A DNA stretch of 64,000 nucleotides from an uncultured Chloroflexia bacterium (GTDB lineage: Bacteria; Chloroflexota; Dormibacteria; CF-121), in the NCBI GenBank assembly GCA_963795805.1, contig CAWCIV010000001.1, positions 581,859 through 645,858 of the forward strand, in the 5' to 3' direction. Position 1 is the first letter of the stretch, and the number at the start of each line of letters is the position of its first letter. The translations under genes were made by a program, and so were the position numbers. The notes under the pieces were generated by a model, which saw only the letters and a program-made list of their open reading frames with translations, was not told the DNA's origin and ran no database searches. This document shows, one piece after another, positions 2,922 through 64,000 of the stretch.

Positions 2922-2931
2922 ACTGCGTCGC

Positions 2932-4044
<1,113 letters not shown>

Positions 4045-5766
4045 ACGATCTGGCCGCCGACGATGGTGGCAAGGACCGACGCGCTCATGATTCGATCCGG
4101 ATTGGCGAGGATGTCCTGGTCGAGGATCGCGAGGTCGGCCAGCATGCCCGGCTCGAGTGTCCCGACCTGCCGCTCCTGCCAGGCGGCATAGGCCGCCCCC
4201 GACGTGTAGCCGGCGAGCGCCTGGGCGACCGATAGGCGCTGCTCGGGTAACCAGCCACCGGTAGGGCGGCCATCCGCGGTCGTCCGGTGGACCGCCGAGT
4301 TGAGCCCGAGCCGCGGATCGAAGGAGACAACCGGCCAGTCGGAGCCGAACGCCAGCCGTCCACCCGCATCCAGGATGGATCGCCACACCCAGCCGCGCGA
4401 GGCCCGGTCTCGCCCGATCTTCGAGGTGAACAGATCGAGCTGGGCCGGTTCCGGGTCGCCGTGATAGGGCTGCATGCTGGCGATCACGCCCAGCCCGGAA
4501 AATCTCGGAATGTCGCTTGGATCGATGGTCTCGATGTGCTCGATGCGATGCCGCCGCTCGCGCTGGCGGATTCCGGGCCAGCGCGGATTCGTAGGCGTCG
4601 AGGGCAAGGCGCACGCCCGCGTCGCCGATGCCATGAATCTGGACCTGCCAGCCACGGGCATCGGCGATCCGGACGGCCTCGGCGAGCTCGCCCGGCTCCC
4701 ACACCGGCCGGCCACGAGCACCCGGCTGGCTCGCGTCGCAGGCCCTCATAGGGCTCGAGCATCATGGCCGTCTCGGACTCGATGACGCCATCGGCGAAAG
4801 CCTTCACGATGCCGCCGGAGACCCACGGGTCGGCGCGACGAGGGAAGGCGACCTCCTCGTAGAGAGCCAGCCGGCGTTCCCAATCCGCCATGCCCAGCCC
4901 GGGCTCCATCCGCTGGGCGAGCCGGATCCGGATCCGGGGCCGGCCGGAGTCGGCAAGGGCCTGATAGATCTCGAACTGCTCGAGGCCAGCGCCGGCCTCC
5001 TGGACGCTGGTCAGGCCGTGCTGGTGAGCGAGCCCGATCGCCTGGGCCAGGCTATGCAGGTCCTGCGCGATGGTCCGGGCGGGTAAGGCGAGGTCGACCA
5101 GGTCCATGGCCGCCTCTTTGAGAATGCCCGTGGCGTGTCCGGCGGCATCACGCTGGATCTCACCCCTAGGTGGGTTCGCCGTCGCGTCGTCGATCCCTAG
5201 TCGCGCCAGGGCAGCCCCGTTGACCCAGGTGGTGTGGCTGTCGTAGGCCTCCAGCGCGACCGGGCGGCCGGGCACGATTCGATCCAGCAAGGCGCGATCG
5301 GGCATCCCGCCCTCGAAAACGGCGTAAAACCAGCCGCGCCCGAGCAGCCAGTCGCGACCGGGGTGTCGTGCCGCGAAGTCATCGATCCGTGCCAGGACGG
5401 CCCCAATGGTCGTCTCGGCCGAGAGTTCGAGGTTTTCGAGGTTGCGCGCCCCGTTCAGGAAGTGGACGTGGGCGTCGTTGAAGCCGGGCATGATCAGGCC
5501 GCCGGCCGCATCGACGACCCTCGTATTCGGACTGATGAGGCCGCTCAGCTGCTCGTCAGAGCCGGAAGCGAGAATGCGGCCACTTTGGATCGCAACGGCC
5601 GTAGCGGGGCCGGCAGCGGGCCAGACGCGGCCATGGTGCACCACGATCGAGGCGGAGGGTTCGATGCACAGGATCGTAGCGGCCGGTGCCCACCGTTTAG
5701 GTCATTGACGAGGTCCGGGCCGCCTGCTACGTTTGGCGGAGTTTAAGGGAGAGGAGGGAACCCCCC

Positions 5767-8973: not shown

Positions 8974-9266
8974 CTCAGCTCGACCTGGCAGCGCAGCACC
9001 CCCTCCTGCCGGTTGCCGCGCAGATCCTTCTTGCGTACCTGGCATCGGTCGGCGGCGTCCTGGCGGCAAAACTCGCCTGGGAGGGTCGGACGGCGTACTG
9101 GCTTTCGGTTCTCGGCGTGCTGCTCTTCCTGATCGGGGCGCTCTGGGGGCGAGGCATTCTCGCCTCTGGGACGACCTTTAGCGCGGTGGGGGCGGGCATA
9201 GCGATGGTGATCATCGGGGTCGCCCTCGACCTCCTCTTCGGGCCACCCTTCAGCACGACCAAATAG
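8970..9266 (+). CDS. small membrane protein (3 predicted TM), unknown function
   Basis: 98 aa hydrophobic ORF whose start overlaps the mnmA stop (GTGA); no recognisable motif (no NuoA FD.E signature). Confidence 0.45.
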
Positions 9267-9274
9267 CATTACCG

Positions 9275-10054
9275 GTGATGGACGCGTCCGACAAGTACAT
9301 GAGCGCGGCGATCGTCGCCCGCAAAGACTACGGACCGACCCTCTTCAGTGTTTGGATCAAGCCCCCGGAACCCTTGCCGTTCAAGGCCGGACAGTACGTC
9401 GCCTTCGGGGTCGAGCACAGCGACAAGGTGCTCGAACGGGCCTTCTCCATCGTCTCGAGCCCGCTCGAGGCGGAGCTGGAGTTCTTCATCGAGATGGTCC
9501 CTGAGGGCGCGCTCTCGCCGCAGCTACACCGGCTGGCCGTCGGCGACCACGTCTACATGCGAAAGAAGGCGAAGGGCATCTTCAACCTCGATGCAAAGTC
9601 CGGCCACCGGAAACACTTTCTGATCTCGACGGTCACCGGAATCGCCCCCTATGTCAGCATGGTGCGCACCCTTGCCCGGGACCTTAGGGAGGGTCGCCTG
9701 ACAGAGCCCCAGCGCCTGGTTATCCTGCAGGGCGCCGCGCGCTCCGACGAATTCGCCTACGATCGCGAGCTGATCGAGGCCGCGGCGGAGTTTCCCTGGG
9801 TGACCTACATCCCGACGATCAGCCGGCCCTGGGAGGATCCGGAGTGGGGCGGCGAGCGGGGAAGGGTGGACGACCTCGTGCGCAAGTACTCGGACACGCT
9901 TGGCCTCGAGCCGGCGGAGACCACCGCCTACCTGTGTGGCAACCCAGGCATGATCGTCAACGCCCGCGACATCCTGCGCCGCCGCGGCTACGACCACGCC
10001 GCGATCAAGGAAGAGACGTACTGGAAGCCGGGGGAGGGTGAGGTTGAGTACTGA
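9275..10054 (+). CDS. ferredoxin-NADP+ reductase-type flavoprotein (FAD/NAD(P)-binding two-domain oxidoreductase, no Fe-S domain)
   Basis: RAFSIVS (RxYS FAD motif), LISTVTGIAPYVSM (GTGxAP NAD(P) motif), YLCGNPGMI; 259 aa. Confidence 0.7.
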   Translation: MMDASDKYMSAAIVARKDYGPTLFSVWIKPPEPLPFKAGQYVAFGVEHSDKVLERAFSIVSSPLEAELEFFIEMVPEGALSPQLHRLAVGDHVYMRKKAKGIFNLDAKSGHRKHFLISTVTGIAPYVSMVRTLARDLREGRLTEPQRLVILQGAARSDEFAYDRELIEAAAEFPWVTYIPTISRPWEDPEWGGERGRVDDLVRKYSDTLGLEPAETTAYLCGNPGMIVNARDILRRRGYDHAAIKEETYWKPGEGEVEY

Positions 10055-10667
10055 GATAGAATCTCTCGCCGTGCCGCTGATCGGGGCGCTTCCCCAGTCG
10101 ATCACAGACCAACCTGCCGTCCTCATCATCTATGTGCTGCTTGTCGTCGCGATCGGCTCGGCGCTGGCGAGCGTCCTGCTGCGTAGCGTGCTCTACGCGA
10201 TTGCCGCCTTCGCTGTCACCATGGCCGCGGTGGCGTTTCTCTACCTGATGCTGGCGCCATTCCTCCTCTTCGCCGTCCAGCTGTTGATCTTCACGACGGT
10301 GAGTGCCGGCCTGCTGATCGGCTTGCTTCGGACCACGACCGGGCTCGACGAGGCGCCTGCCAGCCCATTTAGCGCTGAGTTGATCGCCGGCGCGGCCATT
10401 GCTGCGGCCGTCGCCGCCCTGCTCGGGGTCGTCGTCGGAGCCACCCACTGGCCGGTGCATTTCACGGACCTCACCGAAGGCTTTGGACATTCGCTTCTGA
10501 ACACCTACATCGTCGGGATCGCGGTTCTGGTAGTGATGGTCGCCTCGGCGGCTCTTGGCGCCGGCCTGCTCGTAACCCAGCGTCTCGGCCGGCGCGCCGC
10601 GGTGACCGCGCCTCCGGCGGCCCTGCAGGGGCGGCAACGGCCACGGCGACCGGAGCCCCGCCGATGA
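10038..10667 (+). CDS. nuoJ: NADH-quinone oxidoreductase subunit J-like membrane protein
   Basis: SVLYAIAAFAVTMAAVAFLYLMLAPFLLFAVQLLIFTTVSAGLLIGLL matches the NuoJ/ND6 core; start overlaps FNR-like gene end. Confidence 0.65.
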   Translation: MRLSTEIESLAVPLIGALPQSITDQPAVLIIYVLLVVAIGSALASVLLRSVLYAIAAFAVTMAAVAFLYLMLAPFLLFAVQLLIFTTVSAGLLIGLLRTTTGLDEAPASPFSAELIAGAAIAAAVAALLGVVVGATHWPVHFTDLTEGFGHSLLNTYIVGIAVLVVMVASAALGAGLLVTQRLGRRAAVTAPPAALQGRQRPRRPEPRR

Positions 10668-10982: not shown

Positions 10983-12935
10983 GTGACGCTGAGTCTCCTC
11001 GCGGCAGCCGCCAGGGGTCCGCTGGATACCTGGAGCCCGACCTTTCTCGCGTTGCTGGCCTTGCTCCTGCCGCTGATCGCGATCGTGTTGATCGCCGCCT
11101 TCACGATTGACTCGCGCCGCCTGAGCGCCGGCATCGCAGTCCTCTTCACGCTGGCCAGCGCGATCAGCGCGCTGCTGGTCCTGGCGATCGAAATCACCCA
11201 CCCGCTGCATCTCGAACGCGAGGGCACGTTCCTGCAATTCTTCACCGGCCTGTCGGGTACGGCCGCGGAATTCACGCTCAAGTGGGGGGTCACGGCCGAT
11301 CCACTGGCGGCCGTCATGCTGGCCACGGTCGCCATCGTCAGCGTCCTCGTGCAGCTCTACGCGCTGGGATCGATGCGGCGGGATGACGGGGCGATCCGGT
11401 TCTTCATGGTCATGCTCGTCTCCAGCTTCGCGATGTTCGGTTTCGTCCTCTCGACGAACTACTTCGAGCTGTTCCTCTTCGGCGGCCTGCTGACGGTCTC
11501 GTCGTACCTGCTCATCGGTCACTGGTGGCAGCGAGATGATGCCGCGCGAGCCGGGACCCGGACTTTTATCGTCTTCGCGATCGCGGACGTTGGCCTGTTG
11601 ATCGGGATCGTCTACATCTATTACCGGTTCAACGAGCTGAATTTCCAGGCGCTGGCGGGTCAGTACACCGGCGGCAAGGTGAGCTCGAACGGCCTCTTCT
11701 TAATGGCCCTCCTGGTGTTCATCGGCGCCGTTGCGCGCTCGGCGCAGTTCCCACTGCACGTCTGGCTCTCGGGCAGTGTCCAGGCGCCTGCCCCCGCCGT
11801 GGCGCTGATGCACTCGGCGACGGTGGGGGTCGCGGGGGTCTACCTGGTTGCCCGCAGCTATGCGCTTTTTATCGCGAGCCCACGTGCGCTCGTGGTCGTC
11901 GCGATCGTGGGTGGCCTGACGGCGGTGCTGGGCGTGGTCTGGTCCCTGTTCCAGGACAACCTGAAGCGGGCGATCGCCTACGCCACCATGGGCGAGCTTG
12001 GCCTGATGATGCTCGCGCTGGGGATCCGTGCCTACGGGGCGGGTGCCTTCGAGGTCATCACGCACGCCTGGCCCAAGGCGCTGCTGTTTCTCGCCGCTGG
12101 GATCATCATCCGCGAGCTCCGCACGGAACAGATGGCCGAGATGGGTGGACTGCTGCGGCGCATGCCGCGCACCGGTGTGATTGCGCTGATCGGGGTCGCG
12201 GCCCTGGCCGGCATCCCCCCGCTCAGCACCTTCTGGAGCAAGGACGCCATCCTGTCGCGCGCGCTGGCAAGCGGGAACCCCGTTTCCATCGCGGTCGTCG
12301 TCCTCACGACCTTCCTGCTCGCCGTGGCCGTCTTTCGAGTCTTCGCGCTGGTGTTCCTTGGGCAGACGGCGCGCCGGCGCCGCTTCGAGCCCGACCGGAT
12401 TCGTGAGGCGGGCGGTCGGGTTGCGCTCGCCATGATCCTGCTCGCCGTCGCCAGCGTCGTGGCGGGGGTCCGAGGATTCCCGGGGCGAAGTGACTACCTC
12501 GGCTTTGTCTCCTTCCACGGCCTCATCCCCTCGAACTCGCACCTGGTCGCCGCCGCGATCACGATCATCGCCAGCGTCGCGGGCGCCGGTGCCGCGCTCC
12601 TCGCCTACGGGCGCCGGCCTCTGCCGGCAATGCCACCGGCCCTTGCGCCGGCGCGGCAGGCCCTGGGCCAGGGCCTCTACCTCGACCGGGGCTATCAGTT
12701 CGCCGTCGATCGCGGCGTGCTGCCGCTCAGCGGCGCGTTTGCCTGGACCGATCGCCGGGTCATCGACCAGGGCGTCGACCTCGTCGGCGACTCCATCACG
12801 TTCGCCTCGACGCCGCGCCGGCGCCTGCCGCGGCTGCGCGCGCAGCACTTCGCGCTCGGCCTCTTCACCGGCCTGGTCGCCCTGGCCGCCGTCACCATCC
12901 TGATCGGCGCCCATCTGATCAAGGGCGTCGGCTGA
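10983..12935 (+). CDS. nuoL: NADH-quinone oxidoreductase subunit L-like (antiporter-like subunit with lateral helix)
   Basis: 650 aa; NuoL/MrpA signatures (WGVTADPLAAVMLATVAIVS, LIGHWW, HAWPKALLFLAAG). Confidence 0.85.
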   Translation: MTLSLLAAAARGPLDTWSPTFLALLALLLPLIAIVLIAAFTIDSRRLSAGIAVLFTLASAISALLVLAIEITHPLHLEREGTFLQFFTGLSGTAAEFTLKWGVTADPLAAVMLATVAIVSVLVQLYALGSMRRDDGAIRFFMVMLVSSFAMFGFVLSTNYFELFLFGGLLTVSSYLLIGHWWQRDDAARAGTRTFIVFAIADVGLLIGIVYIYYRFNELNFQALAGQYTGGKVSSNGLFLMALLVFIGAVARSAQFPLHVWLSGSVQAPAPAVALMHSATVGVAGVYLVARSYALFIASPRALVVVAIVGGLTAVLGVVWSLFQDNLKRAIAYATMGELGLMMLALGIRAYGAGAFEVITHAWPKALLFLAAGIIIRELRTEQMAEMGGLLRRMPRTGVIALIGVAALAGIPPLSTFWSKDAILSRALASGNPVSIAVVVLTTFLLAVAVFRVFALVFLGQTARRRRFEPDRIREAGGRVALAMILLAVASVVAGVRGFPGRSDYLGFVSFHGLIPSNSHLVAAAITIIASVAGAGAALLAYGRRPLPAMPPALAPARQALGQGLYLDRGYQFAVDRGVLPLSGAFAWTDRRVIDQGVDLVGDSITFASTPRRRLPRLRAQHFALGLFTGLVALAAVTILIGAHLIKGVG

Positions 12936-54365: not shown

Positions 54366-54923
54366 ATGGTCCTCAAGCTGATTGGCCTGATCGTGCCCCT
54401 GGGGTTGGACACCTTCGCGGTCGCCGCCGCCCTGGGAATCACTGGGCTCAAGCGGCAGGCCCGGCTCCGCGTCAGCCTGCTCTTCACCGGGTTCGAGATG
54501 GGGATGCCGCTGGTCGGGTTTTTTGGTGGCCGCCTTGCCGGCGAGGTGGCTGGCAATGCCGCGGACTACCTGGCGATCGCGATCCTGGTTGGCCTAGGAC
54601 TCTACATGCTCAAGCCGGGCGACAACGAGGCGGAGGAGCAATGGTTGGGTCTGTTGGCGCAGACGCGAGGCCTGCCGGCGATCATGCTCGGCGTCAGCAT
54701 CAGTCTCGACGAGCTGGCGATTGGCTTTACGCTGGGGCTGCTGCGCCTGCCGGTGTTGCTCGTCATCGTGCTGATCGGGGTGCAGACGTTTACGGTGACC
54801 CAGATCGGCCTCACGCTGGGTTCTCGGATTGGCGAGCGGATTCGCGAAGGCGCTGAGCGCGTAGCCGGGGTTGCGCTGGCCGCCCTGGGCGTCCTGCTTC
54901 TGGTTGAGAAGCTACTTCACTAA
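54366..54923 (+). CDS. mntP: manganese efflux pump MntP (DUF204)
   Basis: two-repeat 6-TM layout; LGLDTFAVAAALG and LDELAIGFTLG repeat motifs. Confidence 0.8.
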   Translation: MVLKLIGLIVPLGLDTFAVAAALGITGLKRQARLRVSLLFTGFEMGMPLVGFFGGRLAGEVAGNAADYLAIAILVGLGLYMLKPGDNEAEEQWLGLLAQTRGLPAIMLGVSISLDELAIGFTLGLLRLPVLLVIVLIGVQTFTVTQIGLTLGSRIGERIREGAERVAGVALAALGVLLLVEKLLH

Positions 54924-56561
54924 GTAGGAGTTGACGCCGGGCGCCGGTGCGAAGCGGTAGTTAAACTGGATGAGCAGCCCCGGACTCCCCGCCACCGGGA
55001 GCGTGGGGCAGCTCGCCGGCGACCATGCCGGGCCCTGTTGATTGCCGAGCACGGACCCGTGGTGGAGGGTGATCGTCGCGCTGATGAACTCGCCGTTGAT
55101 CGCGTACTGCCCGCTCGAGTTGCTGTCGCTGGGCGCCAGGTTGTGGGGGCCCAGCTGGACCCCCTGGAGCTCCATGGCACCGCCGGACATATCGAAGACC
55201 GTCCCCCAGATCTGGAAGCGAGGCGTGTTCGACGCGCTGGCATCGAAGCCCGTGTTCGACCACGCCGTTGCCGCCGTGTTCGTATTGGAGATCAAGAAAG
55301 CGATATGGGTGCTTCCGGTCGGGATGTAGTCTGGCGCGACAAAGAAGACGCTGCCATCGTTCGGCAGCCGCGAGTTGTTGGCGCTGAACACGCTCGATTG
55401 GTCGAGGACGAACTCGACACCGTCTGTGCCGTCCGCTGCGGCTGGCAGGTCGCTGGCACCCTGCCCGCCGACATAGTGCGGAAGCCCGGTCGTCGTGTTG
55501 GAGATGTAGCCGCCGGATACCTGCAGACTCGCGCCGCCGGTGAAGTAATAGACGCCGTTCAAGAACACGTACATGCTGTTGGCAGCGTCGGCACTGGCGT
55601 TGTTTGGAATCTGGACCGTATTCGTGTACTTGCCGGGCTTGTAGACGTAGAAGTCGCGGTTGACGGCGGTGCTATTACGGATGGTCGCGCCAGCGACGAT
55701 CGCCGTCTGGCCCGCATTGAGGTTGTTGATCTTCGTCCGGCCCGGATTGAGGACCGCAATGGAAGCCACATCGGGCAGCGTGTAGTTCGGAATCGGGTCC
55801 ACACCGGTGCCCCAGCCGTTGCCCTGTTCCCAGTACTGGTAAAGCCCGTGGTTATCGCTACCCTGGTTGATCACGATATCGCCGTTGACGTTCAAGCCAT
55901 CCCGGTTCGGGTTGGGGATGTGGAATTTTGCATTGCTCATCGTCAGCCCGTTGCCGCTTCGGCTGCAGGCGTCGGTGCCCTCCTGGCCGTTGTCGATCTG
56001 TGCCCAGCCCGACTGGTCGTCGTTCACCGTGTTACCCGAGCCTCGGCCCGCGGTCGCGAACAGGGCGTAGGTCTTCGCGTTCGTGCCGGCCTCGGCGGTG
56101 GCGGTCGCCTGAATGTTGATCTGATTGAAGCCCAGGATCTGGGCAAATGTCCCGGTGGCTTGGTAGCTGACCGAGACCTGGACTTGCTTGTTGTTGTAGC
56201 CGCTCGGCGCGACGGCAGTGACGATGTATCCCCCGCGGGTGTCGGTCACTGTGTTGGCCGGAGGACTGTTGTAAACGCCAGCCCCTTGACCGTTTGTCGG
56301 CGTCTGACCAAAGACCGAGAAGCTGTCCTGCAAGGCGTGGAAGAGGGCATTGCTTGGAGAACCGTTCGGATTACTCGTTGTCCCAACGAGGTCCTGGGCG
56401 GCGGCCAGCGCGCCGGCGTCAACGGCGTCCTGCATCAGACGCCGCTGGAAGTAGAGGCGGCCGGCGTCGATCGCGAGCGCGAGCATGCCGCAGATGGCGA
56501 CCATCGCCAGCGCCATGATGACGATGGCCTGGCCGGAGCGGCTGCGGCGGAACCTGATCAT
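54912..56561 (-). CDS. TadG-like large Flp-pilus-associated protein (Tad N-terminal membrane domain + long Ser/Thr/Asn/Gly-rich extracellular region)
   Basis: N-terminus RSRSGQAIVIMALAMVAICGMLALAIDAGRLYFQRRLMQDAVDAGALAAAQDL; 549 aa, low-complexity beta-rich C-terminal region. Confidence 0.65.
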   Translation of the reverse strand: MIRFRRSRSGQAIVIMALAMVAICGMLALAIDAGRLYFQRRLMQDAVDAGALAAAQDLVGTTSNPNGSPSNALFHALQDSFSVFGQTPTNGQGAGVYNSPPANTVTDTRGGYIVTAVAPSGYNNKQVQVSVSYQATGTFAQILGFNQINIQATATAEAGTNAKTYALFATAGRGSGNTVNDDQSGWAQIDNGQEGTDACSRSGNGLTMSNAKFHIPNPNRDGLNVNGDIVINQGSDNHGLYQYWEQGNGWGTGVDPIPNYTLPDVASIAVLNPGRTKINNLNAGQTAIVAGATIRNSTAVNRDFYVYKPGKYTNTVQIPNNASADAANSMYVFLNGVYYFTGGASLQVSGGYISNTTTGLPHYVGGQGASDLPAAADGTDGVEFVLDQSSVFSANNSRLPNDGSVFFVAPDYIPTGSTHIAFLISNTNTAATAWSNTGFDASASNTPRFQIWGTVFDMSGGAMELQGVQLGPHNLAPSDSNSSGQYAINGEFISATITLHHGSVLGNQQGPAWSPASCPTLPVAGSPGLLIQFNYRFAPAPGVNSYLVK

Positions 56562-56562
56562 C

Positions 56563-57048
56563 TCAGTACTCCGCCCGCATCGATGATCCAGCGGTCATCA
56601 CGAAGGATGTGCCCACGAGGTTGGAAATCATTCCGGTCATGGGCGCGTAGAGAAAGCTGATGCGGACGGTGACCTGATGGTTGCCGGTGGGCCGGGTGGG
56701 TGAGATCCAGATGTACCCGGTATTCGGCGTGCTTGGTGTTGACGGTGTCGTGCACGGGGTTGGATTCGAAAGGCAGGGGTCTTCGGTCAGGACCATGCCG
56801 CCGCCACCGATCTTCGCGAGCGTGGCATTGATGATGATCGTATCGGGAGGAGTGCTGTTTCGATTGCTTCGGAGGACCAGCTGGCGTGCGCCTTCGTGGG
56901 CGGCCTCGGCGATGTTGATATAGATTGCAATCGCTCGGCCGAAGTCGAAGATGCCCATCACGAGGAGGAACAGCAAGGCCGACAACAGTGCGAACTCCAC
57001 CATTGCCTGACCGCGCGACTTCCGACGTGGCATCGCCTGGCGCATCAT
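56563..57048 (-). CDS. TadE-like pseudopilin-like protein
   Basis: RGQAMVEFALLSALLFLLVMGIFDFGRAIA; ATG at 57046-57048 overlaps stop of upstream TadE (ATGA); longer ORF to 57216 is probably not translated. Confidence 0.6.
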   Translation of the reverse strand: MMRQAMPRRKSRGQAMVEFALLSALLFLLVMGIFDFGRAIAIYINIAEAAHEGARQLVLRSNRNSTPPDTIIINATLAKIGGGGMVLTEDPCLSNPTPCTTPSTPSTPNTGYIWISPTRPTGNHQVTVRISFLYAPMTGMISNLVGTSFVMTAGSSMRAEY

Positions 57049-57566
57049 CAGTAGTTCGTCCTCATCTGGACCGACACGCTCATGTGCACCGGGTTGCCGA
57101 CAAGCTGCTGCATCAGCGGCGTGTACAGCTGGAAGTCGTACTTGACGTTGACCGTGACGTAATAGTTCGTCGTTCCGCTGACCCATTTGTCGACGCGGTT
57201 GCTGCTGTCGGGGCATCCCGTCGTACTGCCCGTTGAGTCATGGGGCGGGCAGATCTTGATAGACGACGGCGTGATGTTGCTGTAGAGGAGTTCGCTGTCC
57301 ACGGCATTGACGATCGCCTCGTCGGTCTCGACCGGACACGTCGCATAGCCGTTGCCACTCGAGCATGCGGGGTCCGCCGGGCCCGTGTAGATGTTGAGGA
57401 TTGCGACCCGAGCGCCCTCGCGCGCGGAGTTGGTCACCGACACCTGGTAGAAGTAGGCCCGGCCGAAATCGACCAGCCCGAAGGTCAGGAAGGTAAGCAG
57501 GGGCAACACCATCGCCATCTCGACAAGGGACTGGCCTAGGCGCCGCTGCAAGGAGTGGGGTTTCAT
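57048..57566 (-). CDS. TadE-like pseudopilin-like protein
   Basis: LGQSLVEMAMVLPLLTFLTFGLVDFGRAYF TadE N-terminal signature; 172 aa. Confidence 0.65.
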   Translation of the reverse strand: MKPHSLQRRLGQSLVEMAMVLPLLTFLTFGLVDFGRAYFYQVSVTNSAREGARVAILNIYTGPADPACSSGNGYATCPVETDEAIVNAVDSELLYSNITPSSIKICPPHDSTGSTTGCPDSSNRVDKWVSGTTNYYVTVNVKYDFQLYTPLMQQLVGNPVHMSVSVQMRTNY

Positions 57567-57754
57567 GGATTCGTTACCTGGTCTTATGGCCCGTCGCCCT
57601 ACTGCAGATAACGCAAACGGTAATGGTCCGCATCGGGGATACCGATCACGGCTTGTTACAGGTTCCGTTACGACTTGTGCCCCAAAAGTCGCGCCCGGAT
57701 GAATACTCCCGGGAAAGTGACAACGAGCGTGCGTTCCGGCACAAATGTTCCGTG

Positions 57755-57783
57755 TTGCGGCTTGATGGGGGTGTGACTACAGT
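57755..57783 (+). promoter_or_regulatory. candidate sigma-A-type promoter TTGCGG-17 nt-TACAGT, placing transcription start at about 57790-57791 (first base of element E1)
   Basis: TTGnnn/TAnnnT hexamers with 17-nt spacer; same geometry upstream of E2. Confidence 0.35.
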
Positions 57784-57790
57784 TACCCCT

Positions 57791-58037
57791 GCGACCTGTC
57801 AGAAAGCCAGTTAGAGAAGGAAACGACTCTAGTGGGTCGCCGGCGAGGGATTCGCAAGGATCCCACTCTCGGACCGCAAGGTTCGGGGGCCTGGCCCGCA
57901 AGGGCTGGGGAATCGGATGTCGCAAGACGACCGGTTCTGCCGGTGACGAAGGTCTGGCCCGCAAGGGTTAGGCTGGGCGGCGGGATGAAGGCTTGCTGGA
58001 TAACACTGGCGAGTTGTAAACCGTAACGACGGGTCGC
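57791..58037 (+). ncRNA. candidate structured small RNA, copy E1 (about 247 nt), unknown family
   Basis: 5' GCGACCUGUC pairs with 3' GACGGGUCGC (10 bp); conserved AGAAAGCCAG; GAAA-capped hairpin UAGAG-AAGGAAACGA-CUCUA; several CCCGCAAGGG-type GNRA hairpins; conserved 3' GGCGAG..GUAAACCGUAAC; followed by U-rich AUUCUUAUUUAUCU; paralogue E2 at 61907. Confidence 0.5.
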
Positions 58038-58045
58038 ATTCTTAT

Positions 58046-58537
58046 TTATCTGGCGGTTCGGGCCACCTCCGGAACGAGGGGCTCCACGGCGCTGTCGCTG
58101 ATGGTGGTCTGGCGTGGCAGCCGGGTCTTGGTGTCGAAGCGGTAGAGCGCATCCGGCAGGCGTAGCGCGCGGCCCAGTGCCTGCTCGCCCTCGACGCCGG
58201 AGCCCGCCGCGTGGAAGATCCGGCCGAAGAGGAAGTAGAGGGCAAAGCTTTCGGTCGGCGCGACCAGCTCGAGCATGCCGGAGGAGCGATAGTCAGCCAG
58301 CGCTCGCATCAGGTCGGGCAGCGGCGAAGCGGCCAGGGTCCCACGAGAGACGTTGATCCGGCTCTCTTCCCGGCGCCGTTGCAGCCGGGCGAACTGGCGG
58401 CGGCGGGCCGCTCCCCGGGCCACCAGCAGGGCCAGGCACAGGAACACGATGCCTCCGGCAATCGGAATCGCGGGGCTGACTCGAGGATCAAGCGCTGTCA
58501 GGGCCGGGCCGATTTGCCGAGTGAGTTCGTCAAGCAT
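58046..58537 (-). CDS. DUF4388-domain protein with N-terminal TM segment
   Basis: LPDLMRALADYRSSGMLELVAPTESFALYFLFGRIFHAAGSGVEGEQALGRAL matches DUF4388 pattern; N-terminal AIPIAGGIVFLCLALLVARG TM. Confidence 0.55.
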   Translation of the reverse strand: MLDELTRQIGPALTALDPRVSPAIPIAGGIVFLCLALLVARGAARRRQFARLQRRREESRINVSRGTLAASPLPDLMRALADYRSSGMLELVAPTESFALYFLFGRIFHAAGSGVEGEQALGRALRLPDALYRFDTKTRLPRQTTISDSAVEPLVPEVARTAR

Positions 58538-58635
58538 CCGGCCATCCTATGCACGCGCCCGCTCGGTTTCCATCAAATCGACTGTCCGGTTTCCTGATCT
58601 CGGGGCTTGCCTGCCAGCGATAGAATCAAGCTCGA

Positions 58636-59561
58636 TGGAGGCGGCAGCCAGCGCCAGGTTCGACTCCCTGCTCAAGCGGGGCGAACTGATCGAATCGGTC
58701 TCCGAGATGACGCCGGATTACCTGCGCGAGCTGAAGCACACCCTGATCGTGTCGGGGGACACGGAGCTGATCTCGGCGCCGGCCTACTACCTGGCGGCCA
58801 AGAAGGCGCCCAGCGTGAACGCCTTTATGACCGGCATCGCCATCATCCAGGACGAGCTGGCCCACGCGCACATCGCCTATCACATTCTCGAGGAGCTGGG
58901 CGAGAGCCAGGAGGCGCTGATCTTCAAGCGGGATCCCAAGGCGTTTCGGTACCCATACGCCTTCGACGTGCCGCTGGAGAGCTGGACGGAGCTCGTCGTC
59001 GCCAATGCGATGTACGACCAGGCGGGCTTTTGCCTCCTCGGGGATATCCACGAACAATGTTCCTACGGGCCCTGGAAGCGGGGGTTGGTTAAAGTCATGG
59101 CCGAGGAGAATTTTCACTTGCGCAATGGGCGCAACTGGTCGAAGCGAATCAGCCAGGCGGGCGGCGCCGCTCGCGAGGAGCTCCAAACCGCCGTCGACTG
59201 GATGTTCCCCTTGACGGTTGAGTGGTTCGGGCTGCCGGACAGCCTGAAGCAGCACAGCGCCCAGCTCGACTATCGATTGAAAGGCCTGACCAACGACCAG
59301 CTCCGCCAGCAATGGTTGTCACTGGTGGTGCCCTTCATGGAGTCGATCGGCGTCAAGGTGCCGGCCCATCTGGACGGCCAGGCTTTCGTGCTCGATTACC
59401 CGTTTCCCTGCACCTTCGATGCCGAAGCGAAGCGATGGGACTTCAACGACCCGTGCAGCTGGGATGCGGTGATGTCTCGCTGGCGCGCCCGTGGCCCACG
59501 CAATACGGAGATGGTCGCGCTCTTCCAGGAGAGCTTCAGCAAATTCCAGGTCCACGCATGA
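58636..59561 (+). CDS. paaA: 1,2-phenylacetyl-CoA epoxidase subunit A-like diiron oxygenase (PaaA-like)
   Basis: SYGPWKRGLVKVMAEENFHLRNG and RLKGLTNDQLRQQWLSLVVPFMESIGVKVP align with E. coli PaaA [23 protein letters not shown] / [30 protein letters not shown]. Confidence 0.8.
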
Positions 59562-59884
59562 CGGCCGCGGCCGGGCCGCTCGAGGCGCGCGTCTGGTCCG
59601 CACTGAGCGAGATCGATGACCCGGAGATGCCGATTAATTTGGTGGACCTCGGCCTCGTCTACGGCATCGAGGTGGGGGAGAGGCGGGTGCGCTTGCGGCT
59701 GACGTTCACCGCGATGGGATGTCCGGCGAGCGACATGATCATGGACGATATTACGGCCCGGCTCCTGCGTGTGCCCGGCATCGACCAGGTGGACATCGAG
59801 ATAGTCTGGGACCCGCCCTGGTCGTCATCCCGGCTGAGTGCCGAGGGCCGCGAGACGCTGCGCGCCTGGGGGCTTGCCGTCTGA
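59558..59884 (+). CDS. DUF59/MIP18-type protein (PaaD N-terminal domain-like, metal-sulfur cluster assembly fold)
   Basis: VWSALSEIDDPEMPINLVDLGLVYGIEV...LTFTAMGCPASDMIMDDI; ATGA overlap with paaA. Confidence 0.65.
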   Translation: MTAAAGPLEARVWSALSEIDDPEMPINLVDLGLVYGIEVGERRVRLRLTFTAMGCPASDMIMDDITARLLRVPGIDQVDIEIVWDPPWSSSRLSAEGRETLRAWGLAV

Positions 59885-60108
59885 TGGAATACACACGGGT
59901 ACATCGCGAGGTGCGCGAGTACGCAGTTTTTGCGCGTAAACTGCGGGTCGAGCCGCTGCGGCAGGTTGGCAGCGTCGTGGCGCCGGACGACGAGCTGGCG
60001 AAAGCCTACGCGCGCGCGACCTATGACGAAGAGCGCTGGGTCGAGATGATGATCGTGCGACGGGACGCGGTCATCAGCCTATGGGCTCCCGGCGAGGACA
60101 CTGACTGA
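59884..60108 (+). CDS. paaB: PaaB-like small subunit of phenylacetyl-CoA epoxidase
   Basis: 74 aa; YAVFARK...PLRQVGSVVAPDDELAKAYARATYDEERWVEMMIV resembles PaaB; ATGA overlap. Confidence 0.6.
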   Translation: MEYTRVHREVREYAVFARKLRVEPLRQVGSVVAPDDELAKAYARATYDEERWVEMMIVRRDAVISLWAPGEDTD

Positions 60109-60806
60109 GTCTTTATTCGCTCGTCAAGAGCCTCGCCGACAACAAGCAGTTGCTCGGAATGCGTTACGCAGAATGGTGCACGGCCGCCCCGAGCCTCGAA
60201 GCCGATATCGCGGCCGCTGCGATGGGCCTGGACGACATCGGCCACAGCCGGGTGCTCTACGGGTCGCTGAAAGAGCTCGGGTCTCCCGAGGCCGGCACTG
60301 ACGATCCGGTCACGTATCACAATGTGCCCTATCTCGATCGGCCCTGGGAGGAATGGGCGCAATTCGTGGCCGCCAACGCCGTCCTGGACGGCGCCTTCTC
60401 CTTGATGATCGAGGCGCTCGCCGTTGGGCAGGTTGAGGTGTTGCGCAGCCGGCTGAAGAAGATGCTGCAAGAGGAGCAGTACCACTACCTGCACGGACGT
60501 AGCTGGATGCGTGAGACGGATGCCGCCGCGCAGGTGCACCAGGCATGGGCCGAGGCGATCGCCTGGATCGGGCCCGAAGGCGGCGATGTCGACCAGCTAC
60601 AGACAGAGGGCAAGCTCGCGATGGGAGTCAGGGACCTGACCCAACGGCTCGAGGCGCGGCTCGAGGCAAAGGCCCCGCCGGTCTCGGTCGACTGGACGGC
60701 ATGGGACCCGATCCGCCGCCGAACGGTCGGCGGCAGCATCGATCAGCAGACGCTTGACATGCTGCAGGGACTCGCTGAGAAGCGCTATATGCCGGCCAGT
60801 GGCTAG
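60108..60806 (+). CDS. paaC: PaaC-like diiron-fold subunit of phenylacetyl-CoA epoxidase; start codon unresolved
   Basis: ferritin-like helices; conserved N-terminal-type sequence LYSLVKSLADNKQLLGMRYAEW lies before the first canonical start (TTG 60150); in-frame region opens right after paaB stop at 60105. Confidence 0.6.
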   Translation, partial: SLYSLVKSLADNKQLLGMRYAEWCTAAPSLEADIAAAAMGLDDIGHSRVLYGSLKELGSPEAGTDDPVTYHNVPYLDRPWEEWAQFVAANAVLDGAFSLMIEALAVGQVEVLRSRLKKMLQEEQYHYLHGRSWMRETDAAAQVHQAWAEAIAWIGPEGGDVDQLQTEGKLAMGVRDLTQRLEARLEAKAPPVSVDWTAWDPIRRRTVGGSIDQQTLDMLQGLAEKRYMPASG

Positions 60807-60849
60807 AGAGACCCCCCACCCTAAACTCCCAGTAACCGAGGGGAGGGAA

Positions 60850-60993
60850 GACGTCACGACTCCGCCGGAGGTCTCCTGTACTTTCTGTCAATCGACGGAC
60901 ACCGAGGTCATTTCGCTGTTCGGGAGCCAGGTGATGACGATGCAATGCCGGTGTCGCAAGTGTGGCAACTACTTCGAGGCGAGCAAGTACTGA
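60850..60993 (+). CDS. small zinc-ribbon protein equivalent to PaaD C-terminal domain; start uncertain
   Basis: VSCTFCQSTDTEVISLFGSQVMTMQCRCRKCGNYFEASKY matches the PaaD C-terminal CxxC...S.FGS..C...C..C..F pattern; GAGGGGAGGGA RBS at 60838-60848; no canonical start within 30 nt. Confidence 0.4.
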   Translation, partial: DVTTPPEVSCTFCQSTDTEVISLFGSQVMTMQCRCRKCGNYFEASKY

Positions 60994-60995
60994 CC

Positions 60996-61826
60996 ATGGC
61001 TGACGGGCCCATCTACAGCTGCTTCTCGGTTGAAAGTATCGCGGGCGTCTACGAAGACATCTATGTGCCGCGCATCTTCATCCCGTGGGCCGGCCTCCTG
61101 ATCGAGCAGGCCAGTCTGCGCACCGGCGAGTCGGTGCTCGACGTCGCCACTGGGCCCGGGACGGTGGCGCGCCTGGCTGCCGAAGAGGTTGGACCGAAGG
61201 GCCGCGTCGTCGCAACCGACATCAGTCCGGCCATGGTTGACATCGCTCGGCGAAAGCCGCGCGTGGCTGGCGGAGCCGAGATCCACTATGTCGTCTCGCC
61301 CGCCGCCCCGTTGACGGCGCCCGGGGCCGCGTTCGATGTCGTGACCTGTCAACAGGGCCTCCAATTCTTTCCTGATCGTGGTGCGGCCATCCGCGAGATG
61401 TTTCGCGCGCTCCGGCCAGGTGGGCGACTCGTCGCGGCGGTCTGGCGTGAGATCGCGATGCAGCCGATCTTCGACGCGATCAACACTGCCCTGCATGAAT
61501 GCCTGCCTGCCGAGACGGTAGCGCCGTACGCCGCGCCGTTCCGATGGTCAAATGGCCAGGAGCTTGCCAGTGCCCTGCGTGGCCAGGGTTTTAGGGATGT
61601 CAGGGTCGAGGAGCATCGATTGCCGGTTGTCTACGAAGGTGGCGTGCCACAGGCCATGGCCACGCTCGCGGCCTCACCGGTCGCCGCGGCGATTGCGGAC
61701 ATGCGGGAAGAAAACCGCAACCAGTTATGGAACGCCGGCGCGCATCATCTGAAGCCGCATCTCAAGGGTGGCCAGCTTCACGCCGAGATGGTTTCGAATA
61801 TCGCCACCGCCGCCAAGGAACGCTAG
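60996..61826 (+). CDS. class I SAM-dependent methyltransferase
   Basis: VLDVATGPGTVA (motif I), VVATDISPAM, FDVVTCQQGLQFFPD, LRPGGRLV motifs. Confidence 0.8.
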   Translation: MADGPIYSCFSVESIAGVYEDIYVPRIFIPWAGLLIEQASLRTGESVLDVATGPGTVARLAAEEVGPKGRVVATDISPAMVDIARRKPRVAGGAEIHYVVSPAAPLTAPGAAFDVVTCQQGLQFFPDRGAAIREMFRALRPGGRLVAAVWREIAMQPIFDAINTALHECLPAETVAPYAAPFRWSNGQELASALRGQGFRDVRVEEHRLPVVYEGGVPQAMATLAASPVAAAIADMREENRNQLWNAGAHHLKPHLKGGQLHAEMVSNIATAAKER

Positions 61827-61871: not shown

Positions 61872-61900
61872 TTGTGCGAGGAATCGGCGGCACGTACGCT
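61872..61900 (+). promoter_or_regulatory. candidate sigma-A-type promoter TTGTGC-17 nt-TACGCT, placing transcription start at about 61907 (first base of element E2)
   Basis: same hexamer/spacer geometry as the E1 promoter. Confidence 0.35.
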
Positions 61901-61906
61901 ACGCCG

Positions 61907-62082
61907 GCGACCTGTCAGAAAGCCAGCCGGTGACGGAAACGACACCGGTAAGCTCCCGAGGACCGGGGCCGCAAGGTCTCGGCTAGTACGGAGCGAAGGG
62001 TCTCTCGGAAACGGGTGACCTGGGCGGCGGAAACGAGTCGCTGGGTCACACCGGCGAGGAGTAAGCCGTAACGACGGGTCGC
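61907..62082 (+). ncRNA. candidate structured small RNA, copy E2 (about 176 nt), paralogue of E1
   Basis: identical 10-bp terminal helix and AGAAAGCCAG; hairpin CCGGUG-ACGGAAACGA-CACCGG (stem fully compensatory relative to E1, loop conserved); conserved CUGGGCGGCGG and GGCGAG..GUAAGCCGUAAC; followed by UUCAUUUUUCCU. Confidence 0.5.
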
Positions 62083-62225
62083 TTCATTTTTCCTGCAGGT
62101 CTGCTGGCTCCTCCTTCCCGAGCCTGGTGGACCTGCGCGCGTCAGGATCGGGCGTTCCGTGCCCGCTCGTGCCTGTTTGTTAGGAAATATTAGAACTAAC
62201 ATCTTCGCAGATCTTTACAAACTGT

Positions 62226-62254
62226 TGACTGAACGCCTGGAGCGGGTTAGGGTG
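62226..62254 (+). promoter_or_regulatory. candidate promoter TTGACT-17 nt-TAGGGT for the BNR-repeat gene
   Basis: lower-GC stretch 62170-62235 with TTGACT; would give a ~55-nt leader that excludes E2. Confidence 0.3.
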
Positions 62255-62317
62255 GGGGGGCCTTGGTGCGGGAACACCAGGGCCGAACCGGCTAGCAGCT
62301 CACCCTGGGAGGGAAAC

Positions 62318-64000
62318 TTGACTTTGAATTCACCTGGTTTGCGCGTCCGCCTGTTCTCACGTATCGCATCATTGGCCATTGGCGTCGTCGCCATCTTTGC
62401 AGTGGCGGCGACCAGCCAGCCGTTCCCCGCGACGCAGTCCGGGTCTGGCCTAAGCCAGGATCGACTGAACAAGGCCAGGGCGATCCTCAAGGATTCGCCC
62501 TTCAACGCAGCCGAGGAGCAGTACCTGAACCGGGCGCTGCCCAATACGACAATCTCGCTGCAGCAGGCCCAGAAGGCCAACCAGTCGTTCGGTGAGGTCC
62601 AGAACAAAGGGAACGAGCACGGCGATCAGAACGGCAACGGCGGCTGGCAACTGATCGGACCCACGGTGGGGAACGTTCCAGCTCCGGTGACGTACACGGG
62701 GCGGGCGACCACTGACTCCGGTCGCGTGACATCGCTGGCGATCGCCCCAACCTGCGTCCCGGGTAACTGCCGGCTCTATGTCGGCGCCGCCGGCGGCGGC
62801 ATCTGGATCACGGACGATGCCCTCGCCGTGCCCGCGCACTGGCGATCCTCATCGGCCGGCATGCAGTCCAACTCGATCGGGTCAATCACCATCGACCCCA
62901 CCGATCGCAGCGGCCGGACCATCTACGTCGGAACCGGCGAGCCCAACGGCTCGACCGACTCTGAAGCCGGCATCGGCCTTTACAAGTCGACCAACGGGGG
63001 AGCCAGCTGGAAGCTGGTCGAGGGCAGCGTGCCGGTCAGCCGCGACCGCAGCATCGCGGCCGTTTCGGTCGATCCGGCGAATGCCAACCACCTGCTGATT
63101 GGCACCGCCGTCGCCCGGCACGGGCACTCGGCCGTTTATGGCGGACGCCACACGCCGCCCGGAGCGCCCCTGGTCGGCATCTACGAGTCGACCAACGGCG
63201 GCCGGAGCTGGACCGCCGCCCTGATCCTGCCGCAGGACACGACCACCCCGAGCACCAGCGGTGGTGACTACTTCAAGGGCGGGATCTCTGACCTCCAGCT
63301 CAGCCCGCTCGATCCGACCACGGTCTATGCATCGACCTTCGTGTTCGGCGTGTACCGCCGGGCGCCGCACCTCGATGGCGATACGACGTTCCATCAGGTC
63401 CTGTCCGGTAACGATCAGGCCTCGCCATTCGCGTCTCAGGTGGAGCGGGCGCAGATCGCCGTGACCATGAAGAACGGCCACACGCGAGTCTATGCCGGCC
63501 TTGGTAACGGCGCAACGGCCGATTCGAACCTCTGGCGGGCAGATAACGCCGACCAACCGGCCGCGGCTCTATTTGGCTCCAAGGCGAGCGGGACTGGCGC
63601 CGGCGGACTCTGGAAAGATCTGTCCAACCCGACCCCCGGCACGCCGGGTTATGCCTCGTGGAACTGGTGTGGCGGCCAGTGCTCCTATGACATGCCGATC
63701 GCCACGCCGGCGGGACAGCCGGACAACATCTGGATCGGTGCCCAGATGCAGTACGACGACATCGGCCAGGGTGCACCGGGCGCCCCGAGCCCATCGAACG
63801 GCCGCACCATTCAGCGCTCGACAACGGCCGGTGAAAGCTTCACGGACATGACGAACGACGTCCAGTCGCCGCCGCTGGGGATGCACCCCGACCAGCATGC
63901 GATCGTCTTCGCTTCGTCGAACCCGGATATCGCGTTCATCGGTTCTGACGGCGGCGTGGTGCGGACGAACGGCCACTTCACCGATACCTCGTCCCAGTGC
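62318..64000 (+). CDS. large secreted BNR/Asp-box repeat protein (sortilin/GH74-like beta-propeller repeats), 3' end beyond window
   Basis: own translation from TTG 62318 (GGGAGGGA RBS): signal/TM LFSRIASLAIGVVAIFAVAA; repeated BNR motifs YKSTNGGASW, YESTNGGRSW, IGSITIDPTDRSGRTIYVGTGEPNGS, VDPANANHLLIGT; ORF absent from the track because it has no stop in the window. Confidence 0.6.
   Translation, partial: MTLNSPGLRVRLFSRIASLAIGVVAIFAVAATSQPFPATQSGSGLSQDRLNKARAILKDSPFNAAEEQYLNRALPNTTISLQQAQKANQSFGEVQNKGNEHGDQNGNGGWQLIGPTVGNVPAPVTYTGRATTDSGRVTSLAIAPTCVPGNCRLYVGAAGGGIWITDDALAVPAHWRSSSAGMQSNSIGSITIDPTDRSGRTIYVGTGEPNGSTDSEAGIGLYKSTNGGASWKLVEGSVPVSRDRSIAAVSVDPANANHLLIGTAVARHGHSAVYGGRHTPPGAPLVGIYESTNGGRSWTAALILPQDTTTPSTSGGDYFKGGISDLQLSPLDPTTVYASTFVFGVYRRAPHLDGDTTFHQVLSGNDQASPFASQVERAQIAVTMKNGHTRVYAGLGNGATADSNLWRADNADQPAAALFGSKASGTGAGGLWKDLSNPTPGTPGYASWNWCGGQCSYDMPIATPAGQPDNIWIGAQMQYDDIGQGAPGAPSPSNGRTIQRSTTAGESFTDMTNDVQSPPLGMHPDQHAIVFASSNPDIAFIGSDGGVVRTNGHFTDTSSQC

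Follow-up and report, generated by a model that had tools for sequence, protein, structure and literature searches.

A predicted diiron oxygenase operon with a divided PaaD, conserved across Candidatus Dormibacterota and shared with a broader clade

A 64,000-nucleotide stretch of contig CAWCIV010000001.1 from an uncultured Chloroflexia bacterium (hereafter the window) carries, at 58635-61826, six genes that run head to tail on the + strand, with neighbours overlapping or abutting. The first five appear to form an intact, tightly coupled operon for a multicomponent diiron oxygenase of the PaaABC(D) family, in which the accessory protein PaaD is divided between two genes, a DUF59 gene and a zinc-ribbon mini-gene, that are complementary, non-overlapping halves of one known protein. 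The closest relatives of the window are metagenome-assembled genomes labelled Candidatus Dormibacterota, and its source is taken to be a soil bacterium of that phylum. The reading favoured here, with moderate confidence, is that the operon encodes a diiron ring oxygenase of a distinct and broad 'split-PaaD' clade, most likely acting on phenylacetyl-CoA or a close arylacetyl- or aryl-CoA thioester, and that the sixth gene, a methyltransferase, is an accessory. The six genes are listed below.

58635-59561, + strand: PaaA-like catalytic subunit, 308 amino acids (Pfam PaaA_PaaC, 175.6 bits).
59558-59884, + strand: DUF59/FeS_assembly_P protein, 108 amino acids, the N-terminal half of PaaD (Pfam, 66.8 bits).
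59884-60108, + strand: PaaB-like small bridging subunit, 74 amino acids (Pfam PaaB, 28.8 bits; cut-off 27).
60105-60806, + strand: PaaC-like subunit, 233 amino acids when read from CTG 60105 (Pfam PaaA_PaaC, 90.2 bits).
60799-60993, + strand: four-cysteine zinc-ribbon mini-gene, the C-terminal half of PaaD, 64 amino acids from its likely GTG start (Zn_ribbon_PaaD PF23451, 39.7 bits; cut-off 27).
60996-61826, + strand: class I S-adenosylmethionine-dependent methyltransferase, UbiE/COQ5-like and generic, 276 amino acids (Pfam Ubie_methyltran, 81.8 bits).

An earlier note on this DNA, made from the letters alone, had described clear homologues of PaaA, PaaB and PaaC, and the Pfam PaaA_PaaC and PaaB models match all three. 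Its coordinates were essentially right for all six genes, although the paaA-like gene starts at 58635 and not at 58636. The paaA-like stop overlaps the start of the DUF59 gene (ATGA), and the paaB-like start overlaps the DUF59 stop by 1 nt. The G+C content is ~65% throughout the window, with no compositional break at the cluster.

The division of PaaD was established with the model of the canonical protein (TIGR02159, 146 positions, cut-off 108.15 bits). Positions 1-89 match the DUF59 gene (68.1 bits) and positions 100-144 the mini open reading frame (ORF; 26.5 bits), so that the two genes genuinely tile a single protein. Both this division and the gene order A-D(N)-B-C-D(C) had been proposed in the earlier note and are borne out in the window. 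Among NCBIfam models, the best match to the DUF59 protein was NF041868, the haloarchaeal DUF59-only PaaD, aligned over model positions 24-127 of 127 at 117.8 bits, a score that did not reach the cut-off of 180. The zinc-ribbon domain occupies 60853-60990 within an ORF open from 60754 to 60993. Its core, CPxC...ISLFG.Q.MT.Q..C..CG..[FY]EA.KY, is kept in all Dormibacterota loci and in every distant relative examined, and the linker ahead of the first CxxC varies in sequence and length. In one relative (L090), PaaC and the zinc ribbon form a single protein of 272 amino acids, a natural fusion. A fusion of the two by frameshift in the window was considered and set aside as less likely, since the zinc ribbon is read in its own frame, which overlaps paaC by 8 nt and has a GTG conserved in the subclade. 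No description of a split PaaD was found in the literature. The role of PaaD itself has, to our knowledge, been unknown ever since the paa pathway was described. Published work indicates that PaaD is needed in vivo yet dispensable in vitro, with a presumed function in maturation (PMC4498308, PMC9493321).

In alignment to the solved PaaA, the PaaA-like protein keeps all six diiron ligand positions (E44, E74, H77, D128, E158 and H161), which correspond to what we take to be the canonical ligands in E. coli numbering (E42, E72, H75, D126, E155 and H158). The match to the E. coli and Klebsiella PaaA structures has an E-value of ~2e-22 (83 bits), with the ligand columns aligned. On the NCBIfam equivalog models, the PaaA-like protein scored 113 bits (TIGR02156, cut-off 280), the PaaB-like protein 28.9 bits (TIGR02157, cut-off 85.45), and the PaaC-like protein 70.9 bits (TIGR02158, cut-off 133.35). 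Every equivalog score was far under its cut-off, which marks the oxygenase as PaaABC-type and divergent from canonical PaaABCDE, as the earlier note had supposed. No Box-type profile matched the operon proteins at E <= 0.01 in Pfam or NCBIfam, where PaaA/PaaC models only were recovered, and an exact-sequence look-up of the window's PaaA-like protein returned nothing on record. The PaaC-like protein contains K14, D44-x-x-H47, D95 and E124-x-x-H127, motifs that fill five of the six PaaA ligand positions with a conserved lysine in place of the first glutamate. This pattern (lysine plus D/E-x-x-H, D and E-x-x-H) holds in five of six aligned clade PaaC proteins, whereas in the aligned E. coli PaaC the two motif sites read L..Q and A..H and most ligands have been lost.

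Conservation of the operon within Candidatus Dormibacterota is high. The order A-DUF59-B-C-zinc ribbon was found in 70 of 70 Dormibacterota loci with all five genes detected, and the DUF59 gene lies between A and B in each of them, so the split that the earlier note had singled out for a conservation check is a constant feature of these loci. Identity among 80 species-level genomes is 78-97% for the PaaA-like protein, the PaaB-like protein is 67-96% identical across Dormibacterota loci, and the operon is represented by 208 genome-collection matches and by thousands of metagenomic copies. It is one of the most conserved operons of Dormibacterota, whose representatives in this analysis are all metagenome-assembled genomes. 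In two loci (L022 and L081) the operon spans 4.0 and 3.6 kb, compared with ~2.3-2.6 kb elsewhere, owing to insertions of 1.3-1.6 kb, one between paaC and the zinc-ribbon ORF and the other between paaB and paaC.

The earlier note had named, as the case that would count against it, a degenerate duplicate of a full paa operon located elsewhere. Decay of this kind could account for the lack of a canonical start codon for the paaC-like gene and near the zinc-ribbon domain, and for PaaE and the pathway genes not being nearby. However, it is effectively refuted by conservation and retains next to no probability: the reading frames are all intact, the six ligand positions are kept, order and sequence are maintained in all of the loci just described, and the G+C content matches the surroundings. 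Even the unusual CTG or ATA start site is conserved in position in 32 loci, with a conserved N-terminal peptide behind it.

The paaC-like frame begins at a CTG (60105) overlapping the stop codon of paaB (CTGA), and no ATG, GTG or TTG occurs in it before 60150; nevertheless, all homologues conserve the first 15 residues read from 60105 (LSLYSLVKSLADNKQ). Within the window's subclade, the paaC-like start codon is CTG in 26 loci, ATA in six, and GTG in three, and in the other Dormibacterota subclade the codon overlapping the paaB stop is ATG, GTG or TTG. The likeliest mechanism is coupled re-initiation at a near-cognate codon. The zinc-ribbon mini-gene described in the earlier note does exist, but the start proposed near 60850 does not stand, as no canonical start codon is present there. 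The only plausible starts are GTG 60799 and TTG 60754; the former, which lies 5 nt ahead of the paaC stop codon, is the likely one. The methyltransferase most likely starts at ATG 60996.

The same layout extends beyond the phylum. When 1.84 billion cluster representatives were searched exhaustively with HMMER, only 720 clusters matched at E <= 1e-3, among which identity to the PaaA-like protein steps from 58% to 32% and then to canonical PaaA at ~27-30%. On TIGR02156, clade relatives scored 65-120 bits, compared with 283 and 378 for the canonical P0224 and P0257. The order A-DUF59-B-C-zinc ribbon was recovered in nine distinct non-Dormibacterota loci, counting the natural fusion described above and including loci on Thermus, haloarchaeal and Agrobacterium plasmids. 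According to tblastn of annotated plasmids, the closest cultured relatives are on Thermus thermophilus plasmids (57-58% identity), and further matches lie on haloarchaeal plasmids (45-53%) and Agrobacterium pAt plasmids (38-39%). In a neighbour-joining tree all split-PaaD loci were placed apart from the sequences passing TIGR02156; the window's PaaA-like protein is 58% identical to that of Thermus and ~50% to those of haloarchaea, as against ~30% to canonical PaaA. The phylogeny suggested in the earlier note as a check groups this protein with split-PaaD loci and apart from canonical Paa, although bootstrap support for the clade is only moderate (50% in a corrected run, with one stray sequence joining, and 76% in a run with saturated distances).

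The neighbours of clade members outside Dormibacterota correspond to an aryl-CoA 'hybrid' pathway consisting of a ligase or CoA transferase, the oxygenase, a PaaG-like isomerase and a thioesterase. An adjacent PaaG-like enoyl-CoA hydratase/isomerase (ECH) and/or a ligase, CoA transferase or thioesterase was found in L086, L087 and L091-L096, and such genes are absent from the window and the Dormibacterota flanks. On a groundwater contig the five genes are followed by a 4HBT thioesterase. In Bacillus sp. M6-12 the same order is flanked by genes for a CoA transferase, SDR, ECH, MBL and creatininase-family proteins, a PaaK-type ligase, a second ligase and a thioesterase. A Thermogemmatispora-like contig has the same order with ECH, a PaaK-type ligase, a thioesterase, a creatininase-family protein and TetR nearby, and a Herpetosiphonaceae genome has it with ECH and a CoA transferase. 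The PaaK-type ligase of these neighbourhoods consists of AMP-binding and AMP-binding_C_2 domains, and the clade-linked ECH genes of three loci are mutually homologous (35-43% identity). A different setting was observed on a Firmicute-like contig (L088/L089, 6141-12200; 41% identity), where the cluster comes directly after genes for an adenylating enzyme, a carrier protein, and a fused GATase/chorismate-binding protein that is PabAB- or anthranilate-synthase-like, which suggests carrier-tethered aminobenzoate oxygenation within a biosynthetic cluster. No PaaE-type gene was found beside the cluster at any related locus examined. The split-PaaD, PaaE-less layout is accordingly normal for a widespread and barely described branch of the family rather than the product of one-off retooling.

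Several zinc-ribbon ORFs in these relatives have been missed by annotation. They are unannotated in at least three plasmid records, namely those of T. thermophilus (L094, 11320-11523), Haloterrigena turkmenica (L095, 11285-11461) and A. tumefaciens (L096, ~10300-10450), and uncalled in two metagenome contigs, the Firmicute-like one (L088, ~12070-12200) and the Thermogemmatispora-like one (L091, ~12200-12330). On the Thermus plasmid the zinc-ribbon ORF overlaps the annotated start of the next gene, ECH. The gap between paaB and paaC on the same plasmid (L094, 10402-10590) holds a further unannotated ORF (MVFARKEY...) resembling a second PaaB-like protein.

Inspection of the window for the remainder of a paa pathway was negative. 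A Pfam sweep of 44 further ORFs together with tblastn found no PaaE, PaaK, PaaG, PaaZ, PaaX or PaaF/H/I/J in the 64 kb, in agreement with the earlier note, which had reported that neither PaaE nor downstream paa genes accompany the operon. Queries with the ligase, ECH, thioesterase and creatininase likewise gave no tblastn matches in the window or in the Dormibacterota loci. The only FNR-like protein in the 64 kb (9182-10054; FAD_binding_6 plus NAD_binding_1) has no 2Fe-2S/Fer2 domain; nothing else in the window could conceivably donate electrons, but this protein lies 48 kb from the operon and is unlinked to it in every other locus. The window also contains the alpha subunit of a Rieske ring-hydroxylating oxygenase (2905-4044) and an amidohydrolase (4484-5701). 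The canonical enzyme depends on PaaE in vitro (PMC4498308), and the chromosomal paa operon of T. thermophilus HB8 has been tabulated as PaaR-A-B-C-D-Z, with no paaE listed (PMC6651687).

The methyltransferase, which the earlier note had called dedicated, does not hold that position in the wider comparison. The gene follows the operon in 13 of the 56 Dormibacterota loci with enough flanking sequence, namely 13 of 23 in the window's subclade and 0 of 33 in the other, and since its distribution is limited in this way it appears to be a lineage-specific accessory gene and not a core partner. Another gene, a class I/II aminotransferase where identified, lies in between at six of the 13 loci, and no relative outside the phylum has the methyltransferase next to the operon. 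Its best NCBIfam UbiE model gave 84.5 bits against a cut-off of 378, indicating a generic class I enzyme, and the five core proteins are equally conserved in loci with and without it.

These results bear on the proposal of an oxygenase retooled to act on another aromatic substrate, with the methyltransferase as its dedicated partner, for example by O-methylating a hydroxylated product. In the window the gene starts 2 nt past the zinc-ribbon stop and is probably co-transcribed, the equivalog scores are well under their cut-offs, no paa pathway genes are nearby, and the contexts of the clade are varied, with one of them biosynthetic-looking. The proposal is nevertheless unlikely in view of the scattered occurrence of the methyltransferase, the intervening gene, its absence outside the phylum, its generic class, and the indifference of core conservation to its presence. 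Of the retooling suggested in the earlier note, the divergence of the oxygenase stands, but the layout cannot serve as a mark of special retooling, as the whole clade shares it; nothing in the gene content or alignments appears to require a different substrate.

An aryl-CoA substrate, as favoured here, is indicated by the ligase, hydratase and thioesterase genes that neighbour clade members and by a PaaX gene directly upstream of the operon in ten Dormibacterota loci. PaaX is a regulator family that responds to phenylacetyl-CoA in E. coli. Aminotransferase genes recur downstream of the operon (class I/II in ten loci, class III in four) and would fit a route from phenylalanine via phenylpyruvate to phenylacetyl-CoA, with an arylpyruvate oxidoreductase and no PaaK, and would fit an unrelated role equally well. 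Several points weigh against the aryl-CoA reading. No ligase, PaaG-like ECH, thioesterase or PaaZ/J lies within ~10 kb of the operon at any Dormibacterota locus or in the window; the top 120 relatives of the clade-linked PaaK-like ligase include none with a Dormibacterota label, a weak indication given that most of them are unlabelled; and no reductase partner was found in the window or beside the related loci examined. Moreover, a PaaA score of 113 against 280 means that the substrate of E. coli PaaA cannot be assumed, and the Firmicute-like contig indicates that the clade can be recruited to non-catabolic, possibly carrier-tethered substrates. The searchable literature contained no assay of any split-PaaD clade member and nothing linking Dormibacter* with phenylacet*; text matches to 'PaaA-like' concerned an unrelated E1-like PaaA and were discarded.

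The same observations leave a minor but appreciable chance that the operon has a housekeeping or biosynthetic role in Dormibacterota that has nothing to do with aromatic-acid catabolism, in which a cofactor, lipid or amino-acid-derived thioester, for example, might be oxygenated. Such a role would explain the 208 genome-collection matches, the very high conservation of the PaaA-like protein in 80 species-level genomes, the thousands of metagenomic copies, and the unlinked pathway genes, no Dormibacterota flank containing any of the latter; the recurrent aminotransferases and the ligase survey are compatible with it as well. On the other hand, PaaX stands directly upstream in ten loci, the aminotransferases equally fit phenylacetyl-CoA formation from phenylalanine, and the closest cultured relatives, in Thermus, haloarchaea and Chloroflexota, carry the cluster inside aryl-CoA catabolic clusters.

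Under the aryl-CoA reading, the PaaA-like protein would carry the diiron site and oxygenate the aromatic ring of an aryl-CoA thioester, with the PaaB-like and PaaC-like proteins building an (ACB)2 scaffold. The DUF59 and zinc-ribbon proteins would jointly perform the maturation job of canonical PaaD, and electrons would be supplied in trans by a reductase or ferredoxin encoded elsewhere. From the fixed positions of the two halves and the fusion of PaaC with the zinc ribbon, we infer that the zinc ribbon probably docks on PaaC and that the DUF59 protein serves PaaA. The methyltransferase would have been acquired as an accessory gene in one Dormibacterota subclade.

A bolder version of this division of labour, suggested by the natural split of PaaD and by the PaaC-zinc-ribbon fusion in one relative, is that the halves have separable jobs. 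The DUF59 protein would act on PaaA, for example in metal loading, and the four-cysteine protein, docked on PaaC, would bind iron in a rubredoxin-like manner and relay electrons to the diiron site; the partly retained metal-ligand set of the PaaC-like protein might then be functional and not a vestige. There is a likeness in rubrerythrin, a ferritin-like domain with a C-terminal Cys4 domain, but the idea is a long shot.

Outside the genes, one candidate promoter and two structured elements were recorded.

58621-58626, + strand: TAGAAT, a -10-like hexamer and candidate promoter (read from the sequence; conserved in the subclade).
57783-58041, + strand: long form of a structured RNA-like element, ~258 nt (covariation; R1 model, 125 bits).
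61899-62086, + strand: short form of the same structured RNA-like element, ~187 nt (covariation).

The TAGAAT hexamer lies 8 nt ahead of the paaA-like ATG. At this -10-like position 30 loci belonging to the window's subclade conserve TAGAATCA, while GAGAAT occupies the same place in the other subclade, suggesting a possible promoter of the operon's own that would give a leaderless or near-leaderless mRNA. A generic sigma-70 promoter scan found 0 promoters, and a terminator scan found one terminator-like site, inside paaC and below chance level.

The two paralogous elements bracket the operon on the same strand, the short form beginning 73 nt past the methyltransferase stop. Both forms have common 5' and 3' modules, many GNRA-capped hairpins, and a 10-bp closing stem followed by a U-tract. 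Compensatory changes were observed in 21 of 93 predicted pairs of the long form and in 13 of 50 of the short form. For the short form, 98.4% of cells were paired, compared with 26-44% in slid controls, and 0 of 500 shuffles reached the observed values; conserved G-U pairs in the element point to the + strand. No Rfam match to either element was obtained in the whole window plus flanks. Within the window the R1 covariance model recovered only these two copies, and it gave no hit in the other subclade or among distant relatives. At least 120 metagenome contigs contain an exact 20-mer of the element, which is confined to the Dormibacterota subclade of the window. Where flanks suffice, the long form lies upstream of the paaA-like gene (299-2719 nt on metagenome contigs, same strand) and the short form directly after the last operon gene. 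A role of the long form as a 5' leader or riboswitch of paaA was considered and set aside, given its stem and U-tract end, the variable inserts (some on the opposite strand), and paaA's own -10-like motif. The element may instead be a small RNA or a structured terminator or insulator.

Upstream of the operon, 54912-58537 (- strand) holds a Tad/TadE pilus-assembly gene set and a DUF4388/PatA_N gene. The latter sits between the long element and the paaA-like gene on the opposite strand, an interval that is only ~50 nt in some relatives. Downstream, an ORF of at least 642 amino acids with no Pfam match (62072-64000, + strand) begins inside or right after the short element, and in related loci the short element is usually followed by an unannotated protein of ~600 amino acids with a weak BNR-repeat match.

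Separate PaaD-domain genes at fixed positions across a broad clade offer testable hypotheses on the role of PaaD, and T. thermophilus, a cultured thermophile with the same arrangement on plasmids, is a possible test system. PaaA and PaaC homologues have been proposed as genomic markers of phenylacetate catabolism (PMC13186573); applied here, such markers would flag an entire phylum in which the remaining pathway is unlinked.

Compared with known systems, the window operon shares with canonical PaaABC(D)E (E. coli and Pseudomonas sp. Y2; 3PVR, 3PW1, 4IIT) the PF05138 fold family for A and C, the full PaaA ligand set, a small PaaB-type subunit, and the DUF59 and zinc-ribbon modules, and its relatives sit with ligase, PaaG-like and PaaI-like genes. 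It differs in its order, A-D(N)-B-C-D(C) with a split PaaD and no paaE as opposed to A-B-C-D-E, in a PaaA-like protein that is only ~27-30% identical, and in a PaaC-like protein that keeps motifs lost in E. coli PaaC. BoxAB, the benzoyl-CoA 2,3-epoxidase, is likewise a diiron epoxidase of an aryl-CoA ring, and its reductase BoxA is only loosely associated (PMC4498308). Unlike the window's oxygenase, BoxB is a single large subunit without B/C/D partners. The H. turkmenica plasmid pHTUR01 (50% identity) has the same order, a DUF59-only PaaD, and its unannotated 58-amino-acid zinc-ribbon ORF after paaC, but the haloarchaeal locus differs in having a divergent 2Fe-2S ferredoxin gene, ECH, CoA transferases and an acyl-CoA synthetase nearby. 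The 'paaA_2' cluster of Thermus plasmids (pHB5018c NZ_AP024272.1, AP031324-35) is 57-58% identical over 95% of the PaaA-like protein. Whereas it continues directly with an enoyl-CoA hydratase/isomerase, a TetR regulator and an aldehyde dehydrogenase, and lacks the methyltransferase and the flanking RNA elements, its core is that of the window: A, a DUF59 protein annotated as 'metal-sulfur cluster assembly factor', a small protein, C and a zinc-ribbon ORF, with no PaaE.

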